A stretch of 64,000 nucleotides of DNA from an uncultured Akkermansia sp. (lineage in GTDB: Bacteria > Verrucomicrobiota > Verrucomicrobiia > Verrucomicrobiales > Akkermansiaceae), in the NCBI GenBank assembly GCA_905200945.1, contig CAJKMG010000003.1, positions 200,317 through 264,316 of the forward strand, given 5' to 3'. Positions 42,762 through 57,028 of this stretch are shown here, one piece after another; positions within the stretch are counted from its first letter, which is position 1; each line of letters starts with the position of its first letter. Below the pieces are notes generated by a model. The model saw nothing but the letters and a program-made list of their open reading frames with translations. It was not told the origin of the DNA and ran no database searches. Position numbers and translations under genes: made by a program.

Positions 42762-43277
42762 TTATTTCGATTCCCATGCCCGGCTGAATTCCCCGTCCCG
42801 GAACAGGGAGGCAATTCCGCTAAGCTGCTTGAGGCGCAGCAATTCCTCCGCATCCATTCCAAGATTTTTAAGTATCCACGCGTCCGACATGCCCGCTTCC
42901 GTCAACTCCTGGATAATATTGGTCATGAGGGCGATATTATGAGATCCCCGGGCACGGTTGTGCCTGATGGTGGAAGCCATGCGGTTTCCAAGAGGCTTGT
43001 CGATTACGGCCACCGGCATCATGCCACCCTCCCGTTCGTAAATATCGCGGTAAGTCTTCATGATCTGGCAGCGGTGGAACCCGTCCACGATTTCATAGGT
43101 CCCGTCCTCCAGCTTATAACAAACAATGGGCATCGTATAACCGTCCTCCTTGATGCTCTGGTAGAGCAGCTTCATTTCGGGGGGAGCTACGCTGTTCGGG
43201 TTATAGGCATTGGAACGTATCTGGTCCAGGGGAACGCGCCGGATTTTGTAAACGGGGGATTGATAGGAGGTTTTCAT
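42762..43277 (-). CDS. ParB-like nuclease-domain protein (IbrB-like)
   Basis: ParB/Srx fold motifs: VPLDQIRSNAYNPN...EDGYTMPIVCYKLEDGTYEIVDGFHRCQ. 4-nt overlap with the upstream PAPS-reductase-like gene. Confidence 0.7.
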   Translation of the reverse strand: MKTSYQSPVYKIRRVPLDQIRSNAYNPNSVAPPEMKLLYQSIKEDGYTMPIVCYKLEDGTYEIVDGFHRCQIMKTYRDIYEREGGMMPVAVIDKPLGNRMASTIRHNRARGSHNIALMTNIIQELTEAGMSDAWILKNLGMDAEELLRLKQLSGIASLFRDGEFSRAWESK

Positions 43278-44677
43278 AAAATATTGCGGTATTTATTGAC
43301 GGCGGCCCGGCGCCGGGCAATCGCTCCCTTGGTTGGACCGAACCCGGCGTACTTGCAAAAGTAGTCATTCTTCATGATGCAGATGCACATGCGCTTGTAG
43401 GAAGGCACCTGCCGGAAATTGCTGACCGGCATGTCGTCGGGATAGCCCATAAACTGAATGACGTCGCGGTCGACGTAACGGCCCGACTTTCCCGTTACGG
43501 TCGCCAGAGGATAGGCGGCCAGCACTTCATCGGCAGTTCCGGGATCGACGGTGCCCCCTTTCATCCAGTACTTTTTAGACCTCTCCAAAATGTTGTTGTA
43601 GTGTTCCGCCGTTTTCTCGTTCATTGTGGAAAGCAGGAATTCATAATAGGACTTCCAGGTATGGCCGGGCGGCAGTTTGATGGTTTTCCAGCCCATGGCC
43701 GTCGTACCTCCGTACAAACCTGTGAAGTTGACGCCGTTGACGCGCCCGACCATGCGCGCCCAGTTGGCAGGATCAATAACTTTGTAAAGCTTCAGGCTTT
43801 CCTGGGCGCAGTCATTAAACGGGCTTGCCACCCGCATTTGCCCGATCGTAAGGCCTGCCTGGTACAGGAGATCGTAAAGGCGGTTATAGTCAAAACCAAA
43901 ACGGGCGTTGGCCGTCCAGACGTCACTGACGCGCCAGTCATAAAGAGGGTAGGCGCTGACGGTCACGGCATCAGCCCGTGTAATCCACTTCCTTCCCTCA
44001 TAAGACGTCCTTTTATTGCCGCGGGCAACGGCGGCGTATCTGTTGAGGCTTTCATCCGCCCGCAGCCCTACCATGACGGCAGTACTTCCGTGTTTTTTGG
44101 CAAAATGGCGTGAAAGCTTATCCTGGAATTCATAGTCCACCATACCGTGCCGGAACGGGACGTCCAGATTCTTTTCGTTGATTACATAGGGATTTTCCGG
44201 CATGGGTCGCACCCACAGTTTTTTCTGGGCGGCGCTCCACGGCGTCCAGTAAGGTTCCCCCAGGGAGCATGCGGACTGGGCCCTGATCGGTACACAGTAC
44301 CACATCTTACGAATGCCGGGGAATTGCTCCAGAAATGTTCTGGTGACATACTCGGTCGTCATTTGATATTGGGCCTCATAATCAAGGTGGTACATGGACA
44401 GCTTGTCCAGAAGGCCCTGTTCGGCGGCGTAACGATAGCAGAGATTAAGCATGACGCCGCTGTCCTTGCCGCCCGAAAAAGACACCAGGACATTGTCAAA
44501 CTCTTGGAAACAATAGGCTATGCGTTCTAAAGCCGCCTCATAAACATTTTTATCCAGATATGTTTTCACAACTTTTCCAAAGCCTGTCTTTCGCCATCCG
44601 CCGCCAGCCCCCTGCCGGACGGGAACACGTCGGCCCGGATATGATCGCCGGAAGCCATGCATTTTCCCTGAAACCAC
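43274..44677 (-). CDS. Phosphoadenosine-phosphosulfate-reductase-family protein with long C-terminal extension (IbrA-like, PP-loop ATPase + DUF3440-type domain)
   Basis: PP-loop VLVSFSGGKDSGVML and the PAPS-reductase core. About 200 aa of C-terminal extension as in IbrA/DUF3440 proteins. True start may be a GTG downstream of 44677. Confidence 0.75.
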   Translation of the reverse strand: MVSGKMHGFRRSYPGRRVPVRQGAGGGWRKTGFGKVVKTYLDKNVYEAALERIAYCFQEFDNVLVSFSGGKDSGVMLNLCYRYAAEQGLLDKLSMYHLDYEAQYQMTTEYVTRTFLEQFPGIRKMWYCVPIRAQSACSLGEPYWTPWSAAQKKLWVRPMPENPYVINEKNLDVPFRHGMVDYEFQDKLSRHFAKKHGSTAVMVGLRADESLNRYAAVARGNKRTSYEGRKWITRADAVTVSAYPLYDWRVSDVWTANARFGFDYNRLYDLLYQAGLTIGQMRVASPFNDCAQESLKLYKVIDPANWARMVGRVNGVNFTGLYGGTTAMGWKTIKLPPGHTWKSYYEFLLSTMNEKTAEHYNNILERSKKYWMKGGTVDPGTADEVLAAYPLATVTGKSGRYVDRDVIQFMGYPDDMPVSNFRQVPSYKRMCICIMKNDYFCKYAGFGPTKGAIARRRAAVNKYRNIL

Positions 44678-50670: not shown

Positions 50671-51366
50671 CTATGAACGTCTGCGGCGCAGCAACATGGC
50701 TCCCAGGCCCAGCAGGCCCAAAGACGCTGCGGCAGGCTCGGGAACCGTTTCATAGGAAACCTGTATACCTGTAATTGTATAAGCGGAAGTAGCGGTTCCG
50801 GCACCACCGCGCACTCCGGCAACTACCTTATACCCTTCCTCCCAGGTAAGGGGAGCCGCCGACATATCCAGGGAAATTGTCGTTGTTTCCGATGTAGAGG
50901 TAAATGAAAAGTCCTGTATCCTGGAAAGTTCCTCAACCAGAGTGCCGGTTGAATCATATACGGCAAGCACCATGGAATAACTGTTGATTACAGAAGAAGG
51001 AGTATTGCAGGAAAACGTAATGGAAGAAACGGAATCCCCCTCCTGCGGCCCTCCAAGAACCATGGCAAAAGAATCCCCGCTAACTCCGGCGCGTCCGCAT
51101 AATGTAATGGTTCCTACATTGTTCTCATTCACCCAAGTGCCTTCACCATTTATTCCCCAATTTGAAATGGAATTGTTATTGCCGCCGGCATATATTCCAT
51201 TTTGCAGGCCCTTTACTTTGTCCAGAAGCTCTTGCCCCGATGTTCTCGCCATAGTGGCGGTCTGTGATACGCTTTGCGATTCAGGAAGCTCAGCAACAAT
51301 CGTAGCCGCCTGGGCGGACATCATACATACGCAACTGGCTAACAAAACATAATGATAAACTCTCAT
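50671..51366 (-). CDS. PEP-CTERM (exosortase-sorted) secreted protein
   Basis: N-terminal signal peptide. C-terminal VPEPAAASLGLLGLGAMLLRRRRS is the PEP motif plus TM helix plus Arg cluster. Ser/Thr/Gly-rich body. Confidence 0.7.
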   Translation of the reverse strand: MRVYHYVLLASCVCMMSAQAATIVAELPESQSVSQTATMARTSGQELLDKVKGLQNGIYAGGNNNSISNWGINGEGTWVNENNVGTITLCGRAGVSGDSFAMVLGGPQEGDSVSSITFSCNTPSSVINSYSMVLAVYDSTGTLVEELSRIQDFSFTSTSETTTISLDMSAAPLTWEEGYKVVAGVRGGAGTATSAYTITGIQVSYETVPEPAAASLGLLGLGAMLLRRRRS

Positions 51367-51662
51367 AACGCTTTGCATTGATTAGAGGATTGTTAATCCG
51401 TTGTCAACATAAAAAGTTGAAAGAGCGGTATTCCGGCAGTGGACTTCTTTTTTGATGCAAGGGCTTTATAGAGACTAATTCTTGCGCCTCTTCCATTCTA
51501 ACAGCTGCATGTTATTTCATAAATCATTCATTATTATGAATCGAACGTTATCGTAAACCATTCATGAAAAAAATAGGTCCAGCGTTTTCCCCATGATGTT
51601 ACGGAAAGAAAAAGAGCGGATTAACAATCCGCTGTCCCCTTTATCCAATCCTTAATGATAAA

Positions 51663-51710: not shown

Positions 51711-53012
51711 TTAACGAATAGCTTCCAAAGCCTGTTTGAGGTCCGCAATAATGTCTTCCGCAGCTTCCGTCCCTACGGAAAACCGGATGAGGTCAGGCCG
51801 TACGCCCGCCTCCATGAGCTGCTCATCCGTCAACTGGCGGTGCGTATGGCTGGCGGGATGGAGAACGCAGGTACGGGAGTCCGCCACATGGGTCACGATG
51901 GCGGCCAGCTTCAGACTGTCCATGAACTTGATGGAACGTTCACGGCCTCCCTTGATGCCGAAGGTTACCACACCACAAGATTGGCCACCGCGGAATTGCT
52001 TCTGCGCCAATTCATAATACTCATTGGAAGAAAGACCCGGATAATTAATCCAGGCAACATCTTCCTGCCCTTGCAGGAATTCCGCCACTTTCTGCGCATT
52101 TTCACAATGCCGCGGCACACGCAGGTGGAGGGTTTCCAAACCCAAATTGAGCAAAAAGGCATTCTGCGGAGATTGGATGGAACCCAGATCGCGCATGAGC
52201 TGGACGGTCGCCTTGGTAATATAGGCTCCCTTGCCGAAGCTTTTGCTGTAGGAGAGCCCGTGATAGGAGGGGTCCGGTTCCGTCAAACCCGGGAATTTAT
52301 CCTTGTGCGCTTCCCAGTCAAAGTTGCCGCTGTCCACAATCACGCCGCCCACGGCGGCGGCATGGCCGTCCATGTACTTGGTGGTGGAGTGGGTGACGAT
52401 ATCCGCACCCCATTCAAAAGGACGGCAATTAATGGGTGTGGCAAAGGTATTGTCCACAATGAGGGGAACGCCGTGCGCATGGGCAATATCCGCCATTTTA
52501 CGGATATCCAGCACGCAAAGCGTGGGATTGGAAATAGTCTCCGCAAAGAAAGCTTTCGTATTGGGGCGGAACGCTTTGGCGATTTCCTCCGCCGGAGCGT
52601 CCTGGTCCACGAAAGTAACTTCAATGCCCATTTTCCGGAATGTGACGGCAAAGAGGTTGTATGTGCCCCCGTAAATCGCCGAAGCACTGACGATATGATC
52701 CCCAGCCTCGCAAATATTGAAAATGGCAAAGAAGGAAGCCGCCTGGCCGGAAGACGTCAGAATGGCGGCCACACCGCCCTCCAGTTCGGCAATTTTTCTG
52801 GCAACCGCCTCATTGGTGGGGTTCTGGAGGCGTGTATAAAAGAATCCGGCTTCTTCCAGATCAAACAATTTTGCCATTTGTTCGCTGGTCTCGTACTTGA
52901 ACGTCGTGCTCTGGTAAATGGGCAATACGCGGGGTTCGCCCTTTTTAGGCGCCCAGCCCGCCTGCACGCACAGGGTCTCCGGTCTCAATTCCTGATTCAT
53001 CATGCGGGGCAT
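51711..53012 (-). CDS. metY: O-acetylhomoserine aminocarboxypropyltransferase / O-acetylhomoserine sulfhydrylase (PLP-dependent, Cys/Met-metabolism family)
   Basis: Cys/Met gamma-family pattern. PLP-Lys region HSTTKYMDGHAAAVGG. YTRLQNPT. Length about 430 aa. Start at ATG 53012 (MPRMMNQ); ATGs at 53003 and 53000 are alternatives. Confidence 0.85.
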   Translation of the reverse strand: MPRMMNQELRPETLCVQAGWAPKKGEPRVLPIYQSTTFKYETSEQMAKLFDLEEAGFFYTRLQNPTNEAVARKIAELEGGVAAILTSSGQAASFFAIFNICEAGDHIVSASAIYGGTYNLFAVTFRKMGIEVTFVDQDAPAEEIAKAFRPNTKAFFAETISNPTLCVLDIRKMADIAHAHGVPLIVDNTFATPINCRPFEWGADIVTHSTTKYMDGHAAAVGGVIVDSGNFDWEAHKDKFPGLTEPDPSYHGLSYSKSFGKGAYITKATVQLMRDLGSIQSPQNAFLLNLGLETLHLRVPRHCENAQKVAEFLQGQEDVAWINYPGLSSNEYYELAQKQFRGGQSCGVVTFGIKGGRERSIKFMDSLKLAAIVTHVADSRTCVLHPASHTHRQLTDEQLMEAGVRPDLIRFSVGTEAAEDIIADLKQALEAIR

Positions 53013-53260: not shown

Positions 53261-54508
53261 CTACTTGATTTCCGGCAAAGGGGTGGAAATTTCCTCTTCC
53301 GTCAGATAGCAGCCGGGATCGGACCCGTACCAGTGTCCGTTGGCAAACGCGGCACGGGTGCGGAAGCCTCCGCCGCACAGGGCGAAGTGAACGCAGCGGC
53401 CGCAACGGCCTTCAATCTTCTTCTGCCGTTCCAGAGGATCGTCGGAACCGCGCAGCTCAGGCAACATTTCCGCTGCAGCTCCGGCCCTGGCATCCCATAA
53501 ATCGGAAAACCGGTCACTTTTCACATTGCCCAGAGTAACGGATTGCCAGAACTGGTCCGGATGCACGGCACCCTGTGTGTCAATATTGGCGATGCCCCGG
53601 CCGGAACTGTTCGCGCCGCCGCCATTCCATTGAAGCAGGCCGAGGGTTTCCTTCGCCAGAGGGGAGCCTTCCCGGAGCTGGCGCAGAAGCAGGTAAATTC
53701 CGTCCGCAGGCTGGGTTACAGTCAGCACTTCACGGTTTTTTCCCTCCGCTTTCCATTCCTCTACACGGGCAATCAGCGTATCCATGGCATTCCTTGCTTC
53801 CTCCTGAGTCAGGGTCTGCACTTCCACGCCGCGGCCAGTGGGGACCAGATGGTAAAAACAGACGCGCTGGATGTCGTTGGCGTCAATAAAATCCAAAATC
53901 TGGCCCATGCACTGCACATTGTTGCGGGTCAGAGTCAGGCGCAGGCCTGTCTTTTGCCCCACTTCACTGCAAAGCCTGAATCCGCGCACCGCCTGCTCAA
54001 AAGAACCTTCCACACCGCGGAATTTGTCATGAACGGCGCCAATGCCGTCCAGGGAAATGCCTACGTACGCCACGCCCAATTCCTTGAACCGCGCTGCAGC
54101 TTCCGGCGTAATACGGGTGCCGTTTGTGGAAATGGTCACCTTCAGCCCTTTTCCGGTGGCACGTTCCAGCAGTTCCATAAAGCGCGGATGCACCAGCGGC
54201 TCCCCTCCGGAAAAAAGGAGGGCGTTCACCTTGTAGTCCGCCAGATCATCAATGACCGCGCAACACTGGTCCCAATCCAGCTCTCCCTTAAATTTCCGGG
54301 CAGAGGCGTCTGCATAACAATGCACGCATTTGAGATTGCAGGTACGCGTAATATTCCACACCACAATGGGCTTGCGCGCACGGGACGAAGCCGGTGCACA
54401 GGATTCCACGGCGCCCCCTGCAAAACGGCCGTGCCCGTGGCCCTGTCCGTATCTCAAATGGTCCGCGGGCTGTTCCGCCCCTGTCCAAAGTCTGGTAATA
54501 TTAATCAT
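53261..54508 (-). CDS. Radical SAM/SPASM-domain protein, NirJ/AhbC/AhbD-like
   Basis: IVVWNITRTCNLKCVHCYA (CX3CX2C in NirJ-type context). C-terminal Cys cluster GRCGRCVHFALCGG...GCY is SPASM/twitch. Confidence 0.75.
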   Translation of the reverse strand: MINITRLWTGAEQPADHLRYGQGHGHGRFAGGAVESCAPASSRARKPIVVWNITRTCNLKCVHCYADASARKFKGELDWDQCCAVIDDLADYKVNALLFSGGEPLVHPRFMELLERATGKGLKVTISTNGTRITPEAAARFKELGVAYVGISLDGIGAVHDKFRGVEGSFEQAVRGFRLCSEVGQKTGLRLTLTRNNVQCMGQILDFIDANDIQRVCFYHLVPTGRGVEVQTLTQEEARNAMDTLIARVEEWKAEGKNREVLTVTQPADGIYLLLRQLREGSPLAKETLGLLQWNGGGANSSGRGIANIDTQGAVHPDQFWQSVTLGNVKSDRFSDLWDARAGAAAEMLPELRGSDDPLERQKKIEGRCGRCVHFALCGGGFRTRAAFANGHWYGSDPGCYLTEEEISTPLPEIK

Positions 54509-55562
54509 GGTGTTGTGAAAGCCTGGGCTGATAAGGGCAAAGGTTGTCTTCCGCCATCATGTCTCCGTAAACGGCATAAGCACGGGACCGGGACCCTCCG
54601 CAGATGGTACGGTACTCACACCGTCCGCATTTGCCCTGCAACGCATTGTCATCCCGGAGTTTGAGGAAAAGGGGGTGCGTGCGGTAGATTTCTCCAGGGT
54701 CATCCGTCCGGACGTTTCCTGCCGTTATGGGGAGAAAACCGGAGGGCTGTATTTCCCCGGTATGGGAAATAAACATAATGCCCTTGCCGTCCCGGGTGGG
54801 AATGGCGCGGCGGGCGGGCTTGCTTCCCTGAGCACGGGCTTCCTGAAGCGCCACGCGGCGATAATGGTGCCCTTCCGTCGTTTTGACGCCGAAAGAAACC
54901 TCATGGCTTATCCTGCTCAGTTTTTTCCAGACGGCTTCCACTTCTTCCGCCGCAGGCATCTCATCCATGGCGGCGCGGCCTGTGGGCACCAGAAGAAACA
55001 CGCTCCACATGCCCGGTTTCATTTTTTTCACCAGCTCCACAAAGTCGTCAAATTCTCCCAGCGTGCTCCTGGTAATGGTGGTGTTGATTTGCAAGTGCAT
55101 GCCGGCTTCCTTCGCCATTTCCGCAGCCCGGAGAGTCCGTTCATATGTGTGGGGGACGCCGCGGAAGGCGTCATGGGTGCTCTCATGCGCGCCGTCCAGG
55201 CTCAATGACATGCTCTGGACTCCAGCTTCTTTCAATGCACGGAAATCCGTGTGCAGCAGCCGGGCGGTAGCAGCCGGGCTCAATGCTACATGCAGCCCTT
55301 TGCCGGAAGCCGCACGGACCAATTCCAGAATATCCGGCCTCATGACCGGGTCGCCGCCCGTCAGCACCAGCATGGGAGGCCGCAGTTCCGCCAACTGGTC
55401 AATCAGGCGCAATGCCTCCTCATGAGTCAATTCATCCGGGTGCGGACGCGGCTGGGCGACAGCGCGGCAATGCCTGCACGCAAGCGCGCAAGCGCGCGTC
55501 ACTTCCCAGAAGACCAGGAAGGGGCGTTCATTGAGATCTGTTTCACTAAAAACCGGGCGCAT
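54501..55562 (-). CDS. Radical SAM/SPASM-domain protein, NirJ/AhbC/AhbD-like (paralogue of the downstream gene)
   Basis: LVFWEVTRACALACRHCRA and C-terminal CGRCEYRTICGGSRSRAY...LCPY (SPASM). 8-nt overlap with the 53261 gene. Confidence 0.75.
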   Translation of the reverse strand: MRPVFSETDLNERPFLVFWEVTRACALACRHCRAVAQPRPHPDELTHEEALRLIDQLAELRPPMLVLTGGDPVMRPDILELVRAASGKGLHVALSPAATARLLHTDFRALKEAGVQSMSLSLDGAHESTHDAFRGVPHTYERTLRAAEMAKEAGMHLQINTTITRSTLGEFDDFVELVKKMKPGMWSVFLLVPTGRAAMDEMPAAEEVEAVWKKLSRISHEVSFGVKTTEGHHYRRVALQEARAQGSKPARRAIPTRDGKGIMFISHTGEIQPSGFLPITAGNVRTDDPGEIYRTHPLFLKLRDDNALQGKCGRCEYRTICGGSRSRAYAVYGDMMAEDNLCPYQPRLSQHHD

Positions 55563-55633
55563 TTTTCAGGACAGCCAATTTAGAACAATTATAATTTTTT
55601 GACCAGCCCAAAAGGACGCATCCTTTAAAAAGT

Positions 55634-56452
55634 TCACTTAGCCACCTCTTCACGGATTTTTTGAACTTCCTTAGGCAATTCGGAAAGGGAATTCACTGCT
55701 TCCTTCAGGTTCTTGGAAGCATCCGGAGAAAGCATGATGGCCGTCACATGCTTGACAATGGGTTGCATCATTTCCACAAGCTGCTGTTGTACTCCCATCA
55801 GCTTGGCCTGCTGGTTGCGGGTGAGGGGCGGCAGGGCGGCCTGTTTCCTGGCAACGTCCAGCATAGCCGCCCGGTAACGGCCTATCTGTTCCACAGCAGC
55901 CTTGCTGGTTTCCTCATCCCTTACCTTGGCCAGGGAATCATCAAGCTTTTTGACTTCATCCACAGTTTTGACCAGCAGGGTTTCATGAGTATTGCCCTCT
56001 GCATCCTCCGGGAACGGCTCCGCCTGCTCAGCCTTGTCCCGGGAAACCTGCGCCAGTTCCGTCTGAACAGACCGCAAATCCGCCAGGGCTTTTTGCAAAT
56101 CGGGCGTAAGCAGTCCTTCCTTTTTTAAACGGGCCAGGGATTTTACCAATTCGTCAGAAATTTTCTGCACTTCCGTCATCTGGGCAGAAACCTGAGCCTG
56201 CTCCTGGAGTGTGGCACCGGGAAGTTCCAGCTGCCTTTTTCCAAGATCCAGCAGTTTTTTGCGCACTTTTTTAACTGTTTCCACAGCAGCGGCAGCTCCG
56301 GGTTCATCCGTCACCTTATCCAAGGCTGCCGTAATTTCATGCATGCTGGCAACGCTCTGTCTGGTCAGGGAAAGATGGGAGTCCTGGGCAAATGAGGGAG
56401 CTGTTATGCAAACGGCAGCGCCCAAGCCAATGAAAGCAGCGGTTTTATTCAT
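55634..56452 (-). CDS. Secreted coiled-coil protein of unknown function
   Basis: Signal peptide MNKTAAFIGLGAAVCITAPSFA. Remainder is Ala/Glu/Lys/Leu/Gln-rich heptad-like sequence. Confidence 0.5.
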   Translation of the reverse strand: MNKTAAFIGLGAAVCITAPSFAQDSHLSLTRQSVASMHEITAALDKVTDEPGAAAAVETVKKVRKKLLDLGKRQLELPGATLQEQAQVSAQMTEVQKISDELVKSLARLKKEGLLTPDLQKALADLRSVQTELAQVSRDKAEQAEPFPEDAEGNTHETLLVKTVDEVKKLDDSLAKVRDEETSKAAVEQIGRYRAAMLDVARKQAALPPLTRNQQAKLMGVQQQLVEMMQPIVKHVTAIMLSPDASKNLKEAVNSLSELPKEVQKIREEVAK

Positions 56453-56593
56453 GATATGGAAGCCTTTCCGGCATGGAAGAATACGTTTTCCTCCCTTCCC
56501 CGTCAATGGCGGCTATTGTCAGGGCCACGGTATGAAAAAAGGACTGCCCGCAAGCAAGCGGACAGTCCTTTTGAAATTTTTAACAGGCCGGCC

Positions 56594-57028
56594 TTAGTCA
56601 CGCTGCTGGCGTGAATACTTGTAGTAGCTCTGGAAGCCGAGTTCCGCAGGGAATTCGCTCAGACCGCCATTGGGATTGTATTCCTTAAGGCCGCTCATGC
56701 CGCAACGTCCCTGATAAGGAGGCTTGTACGTGCATTTGTAAGTGGGAGCCCAGAAGGTGACAAGTTCATAGATTCCGTAGCCCATGCGCTCAAACATGGT
56801 CGCGGTGCCATCAACAATGCCTACGGAAAAACCGGCATAATCCCCCTCGCGGCTCGTCCAGTTGATGATTCCCAGCGGGATTTCTTCAACGGAATAAATA
56901 AGGTTGGCGATGGCGCGGCCCAGCTTGCGGGTGGGGGTGTATTCGGAAGCGGGGGGAGCCTGAATGTCCGCACTGGCGACGCCAAGGACGCCGGCGGCAA
57001 AAAGAGCTGAGATGATGGCACGTTTCAT
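56594..57028 (-). CDS. Secreted hypothetical protein (144 aa), Gly/Tyr-rich
   Basis: Signal peptide MKRAIISALFAAGVLGVASA. Good coding composition. No known motif. Confidence 0.5.
   Translation of the reverse strand: MKRAIISALFAAGVLGVASADIQAPPASEYTPTRKLGRAIANLIYSVEEIPLGIINWTSREGDYAGFSVGIVDGTATMFERMGYGIYELVTFWAPTYKCTYKPPYQGRCGMSGLKEYNPNGGLSEFPAELGFQSYYKYSRQQRD

Follow-up and report, generated by a model that had tools for sequence, protein, structure and literature searches.

A coupled pair of radical-SAM genes in Akkermansia as candidate AhbC- and AhbD-type enzymes of a proposed dispersed siroheme-dependent haem pathway

The stretch of DNA analyzed here (64,000 nt of contig CAJKMG010000003.1 from an uncultured Akkermansia sp.; hereafter, the window) possesses two adjoining minus-strand genes, P1 and P2, both encoding radical S-adenosylmethionine (SAM) proteins. 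An earlier note, made from the sequence alone, had described them as overlapping open reading frames (ORFs) related to the tetrapyrrole-modifying enzymes NirJ, AhbC and AhbD, and both are indeed read at the positions and with the 8-nt overlap it gave:

54501..55562, minus strand: P1, 353-aa radical-SAM protein with an ATG start; a TIGR04053 member and AhbD-like partner of P2
53261..54508, minus strand: P2, 415-aa radical-SAM protein with an ATG start; AhbC/NirJ1 type, candidate 12,18-didecarboxysiroheme deacetylase (= Fe-coproporphyrin III synthase)
54501..54508, minus strand: overlap of the P1 stop with the P2 start, 8 nt, ATGATTAA; putative translational coupling
55563..55633, minus strand: intergenic region 5′ of P1, 71 nt, with a TATAAT-like box; probable promoter of the pair

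The minus strand reads ...CAC CAT GAT TAA / ATG ATT AAT ATT... at the junction, with the P2 ATG lying within the last codons of P1. Both are genuine genes rather than chance ORFs, because their profile E-values are strong (1e-124 to 1e-135, NCBIfam) and both proteins are found in public Akkermansia records: P2 is identical to ACD04625.1 of Akkermansia muciniphila, and P1 to WP_298084124.1. The 90%-identity clusters that hold them comprise 1217–1264 sequences each, and P2 occurs in the same gene context on complete genomes of 2.7–2.9 Mb; the window thus represents A. muciniphila chromosome. The two proteins are paralogues, sharing 29% identity over ~366 residues (E=1e-41). The 71-nt gap 5′ of P1 probably contains the pair's own promoter, as its TATAAT-like box suggests; promoter prediction at its threshold called no minus-strand promoter there.

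Both proteins contain the radical-SAM motif quoted in the earlier note, P1 in the form LVFWEVTRACALACRHC and P2 in the form VVWNITRTCNLKCVHC. The sites relevant to cofactor binding and family assignment are the following:

55467..55490, minus strand: P1 radical-SAM cluster motif C25-X3-C29-X2-C32, from the translation; invariant in the P1 alignment
54537..54629, minus strand: P1 auxiliary-cluster motif C312-X2-C315-X5-C321-X20-C342, from the translation and the P1 alignment
54317..54340, minus strand: P2 radical-SAM cluster motif C57-X3-C61-X2-C64, from the translation; invariant in the P2 alignments
53309..53404, minus strand: P2 auxiliary-cluster motif C369-X2-C372-X5-C378-X21-C400, from the translation and the P2 alignments
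54374..54508, minus strand: P2 N-terminal extension (MINITRLWTG..D.LRYG...), present in the AhbC and NirJ1 models and outside the NirJ model

The note had also ascribed C-terminal SPASM cysteines to the pair. This holds for four cysteines in each protein (CX2CX5CX20C in P1, CX2CX5CX21C in P2), but a full SPASM set of 7–8 cysteines is absent, and the domains that Pfam recognizes in P1 and P2 are limited to Radical_SAM and Fer4_12; SPASM (PF13186) gave no match at E<=0.01. A precomputed PF13186 match is present in some homologues of the pair.

When compared with the profiles of the NirJ, AhbC and AhbD subfamilies, as the note had proposed, P2 fits NirJ1 (TIGR04054) and AhbC (TIGR04546) best, and P1 fits TIGR04053 and AhbD (TIGR04545). 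Residues 2–407 of P2 align full length both to NirJ1 (model positions 1–387) and to AhbC (model positions 1–390); its score on AhbD is 178 bits. Within the N-terminal extension shared with these two models, M1, N3, L7, G10, D16, L18, R19, Y20 and G21 are invariant even in relatives of 44–47% identity. The latter are the nearest non-Verrucomicrobial relatives of P2 among the 50%-identity cluster representatives; they are AhbC/NirJ1-like as well, with 330–532 bits, and stay under the cut-off of every named model.

An automatic UniProt annotation names P2 (B2UQ90_AKKM8) ‘Pre-heme d1 synthase’, implying that one or both enzymes could be of NirJ type and take propionate side chains off didecarboxysiroheme in the synthesis of haem d1, which cytochrome cd1 nitrite reductase uses as its cofactor. 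P2 does belong to the same superfamily branch as NirJ (TIGR04051) and scores 347.7 bits on that model. However, this is under the cut-off of 515 and below the scores of P2 on AhbC and NirJ1, and the alignment begins only at residue 46, leaving the N-terminal extension uncovered. In addition, no nirS, nirF, nirN or nirE-like gene was found in the 64 kb or in ~40 related loci, and a single NirJ suffices for haem d1, for which a conserved pair of a C-type and a D-type enzyme is not needed. Six environmental loci (L140, L148, L151, L153, L155 and L156; for instance L148:6449-7750 and L156:8712-9911) have an NnrS-family gene (PF05940) at a distance of 0–2 kb from the pair. This speaks for the haem d1 explanation, NnrS being a membrane protein that contains haem and copper and is associated with the response to nitric oxide. 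On the lower score, the uncovered extension and the lack of nir genes we rejected a NirJ identity for haem d1 as very unlikely. In L156, the NnrS gene lies directly upstream of the AhbC-like gene, in the place usually taken by P1.

The AlphaFold model of P2 (pLDDT 76.6) is most similar to the solved structures of the anaerobic sulfatase-maturating enzyme (anSME), PqqE, SkfB and SuiB (TM 0.55–0.64; 15–21% identity). This likeness of the predicted model appears to concern the general SPASM/Twitch radical-SAM fold only, and the four are simply the nearest solved structures, because sequence searches of solved structures found none of AhbC, AhbD or NirJ. The same fold would be expected of an anSME or of a maturase of ribosomally synthesized and post-translationally modified peptides (RiPPs), and Akkermansia is rich in sulfatases. 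Yet none of the mycofactocin, GeoRSP, PqqE and sactipeptide models exceeds 131 bits, compared with 400–450 for the tetrapyrrole families; the anSME model is outside the 25 best for either protein, and the sequence match to anSME among solved structures reaches only E=6e-6. The full SPASM cysteine set is absent, and in ~40 loci the pair has no conserved companion among small ORFs, peptidases, transporters or sulfatases, the window itself having had no search for peptide-sized ORFs. A best match to either of these families, which the note had set against its own idea, was thus not what the profiles returned; with scores this low and neither precursor nor sulfatase context, a role in RiPP or sulfatase maturation was rejected as extremely improbable.

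P1 is a full member of TIGR04053 (449.6 bits; cut-off 395), and its orthologues from other loci also exceed the cut-off (435.8, 435.5 and 440.7 bits). AhbD is its second-best model; NirJ2 (TIGR04055) and AhbC follow with 207 and 156 bits. AhbD proteins carry a conserved C-terminal motif CX2CX5CX20-38C (AuxII), and the extra SPASM cysteines (AuxI) occur only in the AhbDs of methanogens and sulfate reducers, being replaced with two Ser and one Glu in non-methanogenic archaea (Fix et al. 2023, PMC10452713). P1 carries both AhbD cysteine motifs, with CX3CX2C at the N-terminus and CX2CX5CX20C at the C-terminus. In its segment ISHTGEIQPSGF, Ser stands where the first AuxI Cys would be expected; Akkermansia P1 has Ser and Ala at the AuxI positions, and one Cys is retained in environmental orthologues. 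The full SPASM arrangement with AuxI is therefore absent from P1, AuxI being a feature of only some AhbDs, and by its cysteine pattern P1 resembles the AhbD type of non-methanogenic archaea. Judged by these profiles and motifs, P1 and P2 would fall in two complementary clades, as do the members of the known pairs AhbC+AhbD and NirJ1+NirJ2.

The arrangement of the pair was compared across related loci, including 43 further non-identical loci found in a metagenome scan. The P1–P2 order and tight coupling are kept in 28 related loci whose identity ranges between 94% and 57%; in these 28 measurable cases the distance from P1 stop to P2 start ranges from −8 to +64 nt, most commonly −4. Among metagenome loci with P2 at 57–65% identity, P1 lies directly upstream of P2 in ~24 of 31. 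In Akkermansia relatives with P2 72–73% identical, the pair is intact and every neighbour is different (CRISPR-Cas9 and dnaE in L004; rpsU and ung in L006), and apart from NnrS no recurrent neighbour was found in the related loci compared. Because order and coupling persist while all neighbours change, the P1-then-P2 two-gene operon is, to judge from gene order, a functional unit under selection. AhbC-like genes 54–56% identical to P2 and without an adjoining P1 were observed in L165–L169 (~10001-11160 in L165, L167, L168 and L169); that of L165 scores 505 bits on AhbC and on NirJ1 alike, more than P2. These genes stand beside unrelated ones (ammonium transporter, beta-CASP RNase, glycosyltransferase) and probably represent another lineage, in which the genes are arranged differently.

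The absence of ahbA/ahbB and nirS/nirF near the pair, reported in the earlier note for its surroundings, extends over the whole 64 kb: no tetrapyrrole gene is present in the gene content, and a tblastn search of the window with the fused AhbAB-like protein described below gave no match. The note had suggested looking for ahbA/ahbB elsewhere. A homologue of this kind, a fusion, does exist in other Akkermansia genomes, though not on the record of this window. It came to light in L006, a 73%-identical relative in which a 370-aa fused AhbA/AhbB-like gene is located 8 kb from the pair on the same contig; its product matches AhbA in the N-terminal half (52.9 bits) and AhbB in the C-terminal half (74.2 bits). 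Fused AhbAB-like proteins of 360–375 aa are found in many Akkermansia metagenome-assembled genomes under the name ‘Lrp/AsnC family transcriptional regulator’, which is probably a misannotation; some members from Luteolibacter and Haloferula are already labelled ‘siroheme decarboxylase’ in UniRef. The gene is present in at least 584 loci across Verrucomicrobiota in a collection of species-representative genomes, the best 80 of which come from Akkermansia, Luteolibacter, Haloferula, Prosthecobacter, Brevifollis, Chthoniobacter and Udaeobacter.

The AhbAB-like profile matches the solved structure of NirDL from Hydrogenobacter thermophilus (4ch7/4czc; E=2e-18, positions 27–319), as well as AhbA/AhbB from Desulfovibrio desulfuricans (4czd/4un1). 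Like these, the protein has a two-domain Lrp/AsnC-like organization with HXYXR in the second half; unlike them, it has HxVxR in the N-terminal half, and its identity to them is low. Siroheme decarboxylases share a conserved HXYXR motif lining the active site; in AhbB, His98, Tyr100 and Arg102 are catalytic, and in AhbA, His115 and Arg119 bind the substrate (Palmer et al. 2014, PMC4145669). In the AhbB-like half of the fused protein, H289-C-Y291-W-R293 is invariant, so that HXYXR is retained.

Three clusters of human-gut Akkermansia AhbAB-like proteins contain 781, 261 and 99 sequences. Because their sum, ~1140, is close to the sizes of the P1 and P2 clusters, A. muciniphila itself appears to carry the gene, for which cluster sizes and names provide strong but indirect evidence. 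One cluster member is named ‘MULTISPECIES ... [Akkermansia]’, and this allele is part of a complete genome, CP072038.1 (3.12 Mb), where it lies downstream of mreB and rng. In Akkermansia from the human gut and from rabbit, the gene is invariably preceded by mreB and rng (RNase G), and in other Akkermansia species by a GHMP kinase gene; representative regions are:

L088:7113-11122; L172:115-4122; L044:8320-11113: mreB/rng/GHMP-kinase regions by the AhbAB-like gene

No tetrapyrrole genes were found beside it, only housekeeping ones (GHMP kinase, rng/mreB, response regulator, CCA-adding enzyme). Given the distance of the gene from the pair and its surroundings of unrelated housekeeping genes, this is a truly dispersed pathway, provided that it is one at all.

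We propose that P2 and P1 are the last two enzymes, AhbC and AhbD respectively, of the oxygen-independent, siroheme-dependent (AHB) route to haem b, and give this a probability of about 65%. A dispersed pathway of this kind was also what the earlier note had considered, and it is favoured by the profile matches together with the AhbAB-like gene found elsewhere in the genus and phylum. The substrates, the activities and the role in haem supply that we infer would be as follows. The pair would form a bicistronic, translationally coupled operon for both radical-SAM steps of the AHB pathway. The hemA/L/B/C/D-type genes that all Akkermansia genomes are known to have would supply the precursors, with uroporphyrinogen III being converted to siroheme, and the fused AhbAB-like (NirDL-type) protein, encoded elsewhere, would convert siroheme to 12,18-didecarboxysiroheme. 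P2 would then strip two acetate side chains from the latter, yielding Fe-coproporphyrin III (coproheme), and P1 would oxidatively decarboxylate two coproheme propionates to vinyls, giving haem b. In each enzyme the CX3CX2C site, binding a [4Fe-4S] cluster and SAM, would generate a 5′-deoxyadenosyl radical; the single C-terminal auxiliary [4Fe-4S] cluster (CX2CX5CX20-21C) presumably removes the electron of the oxidation. The haem produced may serve cytochrome bd, which Ouwerkerk and colleagues reportedly described in Akkermansia in 2016.

Several published observations are consistent with this scheme. The tetrapyrrole-precursor genes Amuc_0090, 0091, 0417, 0896 and 1730 are present in 75 of 75 Akkermansia genomes, and the corrin ring is made by only one Akkermansia phylogroup (Kirmiz et al. 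2020, PMC6974653). Because most Akkermansia strains make no corrin ring, another tetrapyrrole must justify the precursor genes. A survey of ferrochelatase (EC 4.99.1.1; finished IMG genomes, one per genus) kept no Verrucomicrobia other than Opitutae (PMC8529089), which indirectly suggests that Akkermansia is devoid of an annotated classical ferrochelatase. Finally, no haem source is listed for a defined medium supporting the growth of A. muciniphila (PMC5902328).

A number of points weigh against the proposal. By NCBI standards neither P1 nor P2 is an equivalog: P2 scores 414.3 bits on NirJ1, its best model, and 398.1 bits on AhbC (cut-off 650 for both), and P1, while aligned end to end with AhbD (residues 16–346, model positions 1–339), reaches 318.5 bits with a cut-off of 500. 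The family P1 does belong to, TIGR04053, has no assigned function. The AhbAB-like proteins likewise stay under the NF040707/NF040708 cut-offs of 125/140, with 74.2/52.9 bits for the L006 protein and 68.1/43.1 bits for a human-gut allele (P0673), and in the AhbA-like half (H100-V-V-L-R104) His and Arg are retained with Tyr substituted by Val. The presence of the gene in A. muciniphila sensu stricto is deduced rather than read from the record of this window. An operon-level link to the pair is lacking: the two do not lie within 10 kb of each other in 80 genome loci centred on the AhbAB-like gene and 43 metagenome loci centred on the pair, L006 being the only locus in which they do. No report of the AHB pathway in Akkermansia or Verrucomicrobia was found in the literature searched. 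As to the profile scores, the AhbC, NirJ1 and AhbD equivalog models are narrow, and 650 bits on models of ~390 positions is a very strict requirement; a sub-threshold score is therefore weak evidence against an AhbC-like function.

The same deviations could be taken to mean that P1, P2 and the AhbAB-like protein are a Verrucomicrobia-specific set, not simple AhbC/AhbD orthologues, that uses enzymes with one auxiliary cluster each to process substrates, siroheme-derived or other, through a different chemistry or towards an end product other than haem b. All three proteins score under the equivalog cut-offs, AuxI has been lost, TIGR04053 offers no function to transfer, and even the nearest non-Verrucomicrobial relatives of P2 are sub-threshold for all named models. 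On the other hand, the three proteins match the three AHB enzyme types one to one and retain their catalytic and cluster motifs, and the cut-offs are as strict as noted above. We regard such an undescribed tetrapyrrole or cofactor modification as unlikely; were it correct, TIGR04053 would gain a new function.

A hybrid route can be envisaged too, in which P1 is an oxygen-independent coproheme decarboxylase and P2 performs something other than the AhbC reaction. AhbD homologues are known from bacteria having the coproporphyrin-dependent (CPD) pathway and no other AHB enzymes (2026 review, PMC13564367), oxygen-independent decarboxylation of coproheme has been proposed for such homologues in Gram-positive bacteria, and P1 is a TIGR04053 member, not an AhbD equivalog. 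We infer that TIGR04053 may be the family meant in that review, which would give TIGR04053-like proteins a plausible activity. However, coupling of P1 to an AhbC-type gene is nearly universal, the genus has an AhbAB-like decarboxylase whose HXYXR is intact, and the IMG survey retained no ferrochelatase from Verrucomicrobiae, all of which make the hybrid route rather improbable.

Read as AhbC and AhbD, the pair can be set beside known systems. Like AhbC/AhbD of Desulfovibrio vulgaris and of Methanosarcina barkeri, the pair would combine a C-type and a D-type radical-SAM enzyme, each with CX3CX2C, an AhbC-type N-terminal extension in P2, the AhbD CX2CX5CX20-38C in P1 and an AhbA/B-type decarboxylase in the lineage. 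Unlike them, the pair is under the model cut-offs (398 vs. 650 and 318 vs. 500), P1 is without the AuxI cysteines of sulfate-reducer and methanogen AhbDs, AhbA and AhbB are fused in Akkermansia, the genes are scattered instead of clustered, and the host is a verrucomicrobium rather than an archaeon or a sulfate reducer. NirJ1/NirJ2 of Firmicutes show the same C-type/D-type pairing, and NirJ1 is the top model of P2 over its full length; the differences are the P2 score under 650 and the mere 207 bits of P1 on NirJ2. These two names are older than the AHB pathway, and the functions behind them are only inferred. TIGR04053 proteins share with P1 and its tested orthologues scores above 395, but here the gene is coupled to an AhbC-type one.

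If the AHB assignment is correct, this route would provide A. muciniphila, a much-studied symbiont of the human gut, with haem of its own making under anaerobic conditions. That would matter for the supply of cytochrome bd at the oxic mucus interface and for the cross-feeding of haem and iron in the gut. The route would also reach into the wider Verrucomicrobiota, the fused AhbAB-like gene being found in Verrucomicrobiae and Chthoniobacterales; many of these are aerobes. It would be a known pathway, scattered, in an unexpected phylum, extending known chemistry to a new lineage with no new mechanism, and automatic database names already hint at it. The siroheme-dependent route is still described as archaeal and sulfate-reducing bacterial (PMC10452713, PMC11306076, PMC8529089). 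In the same case the uncharacterized TIGR04053 would gain a testable function, and two misleading database names would be corrected, P2 being listed as ‘Pre-heme d1 synthase’ and the AhbAB-like protein as ‘Lrp/AsnC transcriptional regulator’.

The gene content of the whole window was obtained, via locus L001 for 43–64 kb and via L087 for 21–43 kb, and for 0–21 kb as well. The 43–64 kb part contains genes for pyruvate:ferredoxin oxidoreductase (PFOR), lysS, a PP2C phosphatase, plsY, gpsA, an exosortase-associated protein and a secreted protein, then the pair, and further an O-acetylhomoserine sulfhydrylase, a PEP-CTERM protein, a Mg-chelatase-like ATPase (ComM type), a rhomboid protease, a DAO-family oxidoreductase and isopropylmalate dehydrogenase. 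Glycosidases, transporters and the like occupy 21–43 kb; aroG, a pseudopilin, ribF, truB and glycosyltransferases are found in 0–21 kb. The features nearest to the pair are:

51711-53003, minus strand: metY, O-acetylhomoserine/O-acetylserine sulfhydrylase, 3′ of the pair (TIGR01326, 599 bits)
55634-56506, minus strand: upstream neighbour, 290 aa, with a signal-peptide-like N-terminus and no Pfam/NCBIfam match
50671-51378, minus strand: secreted 235-aa protein with a PEP-CTERM-like sorting signal at its end, VPEPAAASLGLLGLGAMLLRRRRS
56594-57028, minus strand: TIGR04073 exosortase-system-associated protein (91.6 bits)

The gene metY is preceded by promoter-like sites at 53138-53109 and 53039-53011, in the 257-nt gap that follows the pair. 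A functional link between metY and the pair through methionine/SAM supply is unlikely, because their adjacency is kept only within the A. muciniphila group. The protein encoded by 55634-56506 apparently consists of two copies of a ~75-aa helical unit, and it accompanies the pair only in the same group. The PEP-CTERM-like protein and the TIGR04073 protein flank the neighbourhood of the pair. In L004:247-4265 and L005:95-4418, where P2 is 72% identical, a type II CRISPR-Cas system (1026-aa HNH protein, Cas1, Cas2) adjoins the pair. Farther away, at ~43276-44571 on the minus strand, the gene for a PAPS-reductase/DUF3440 protein comes before one for a ParB_N-domain protein; coordinates around this region are ~1.1 kb apart between strains L001 and L087, suggesting an indel.

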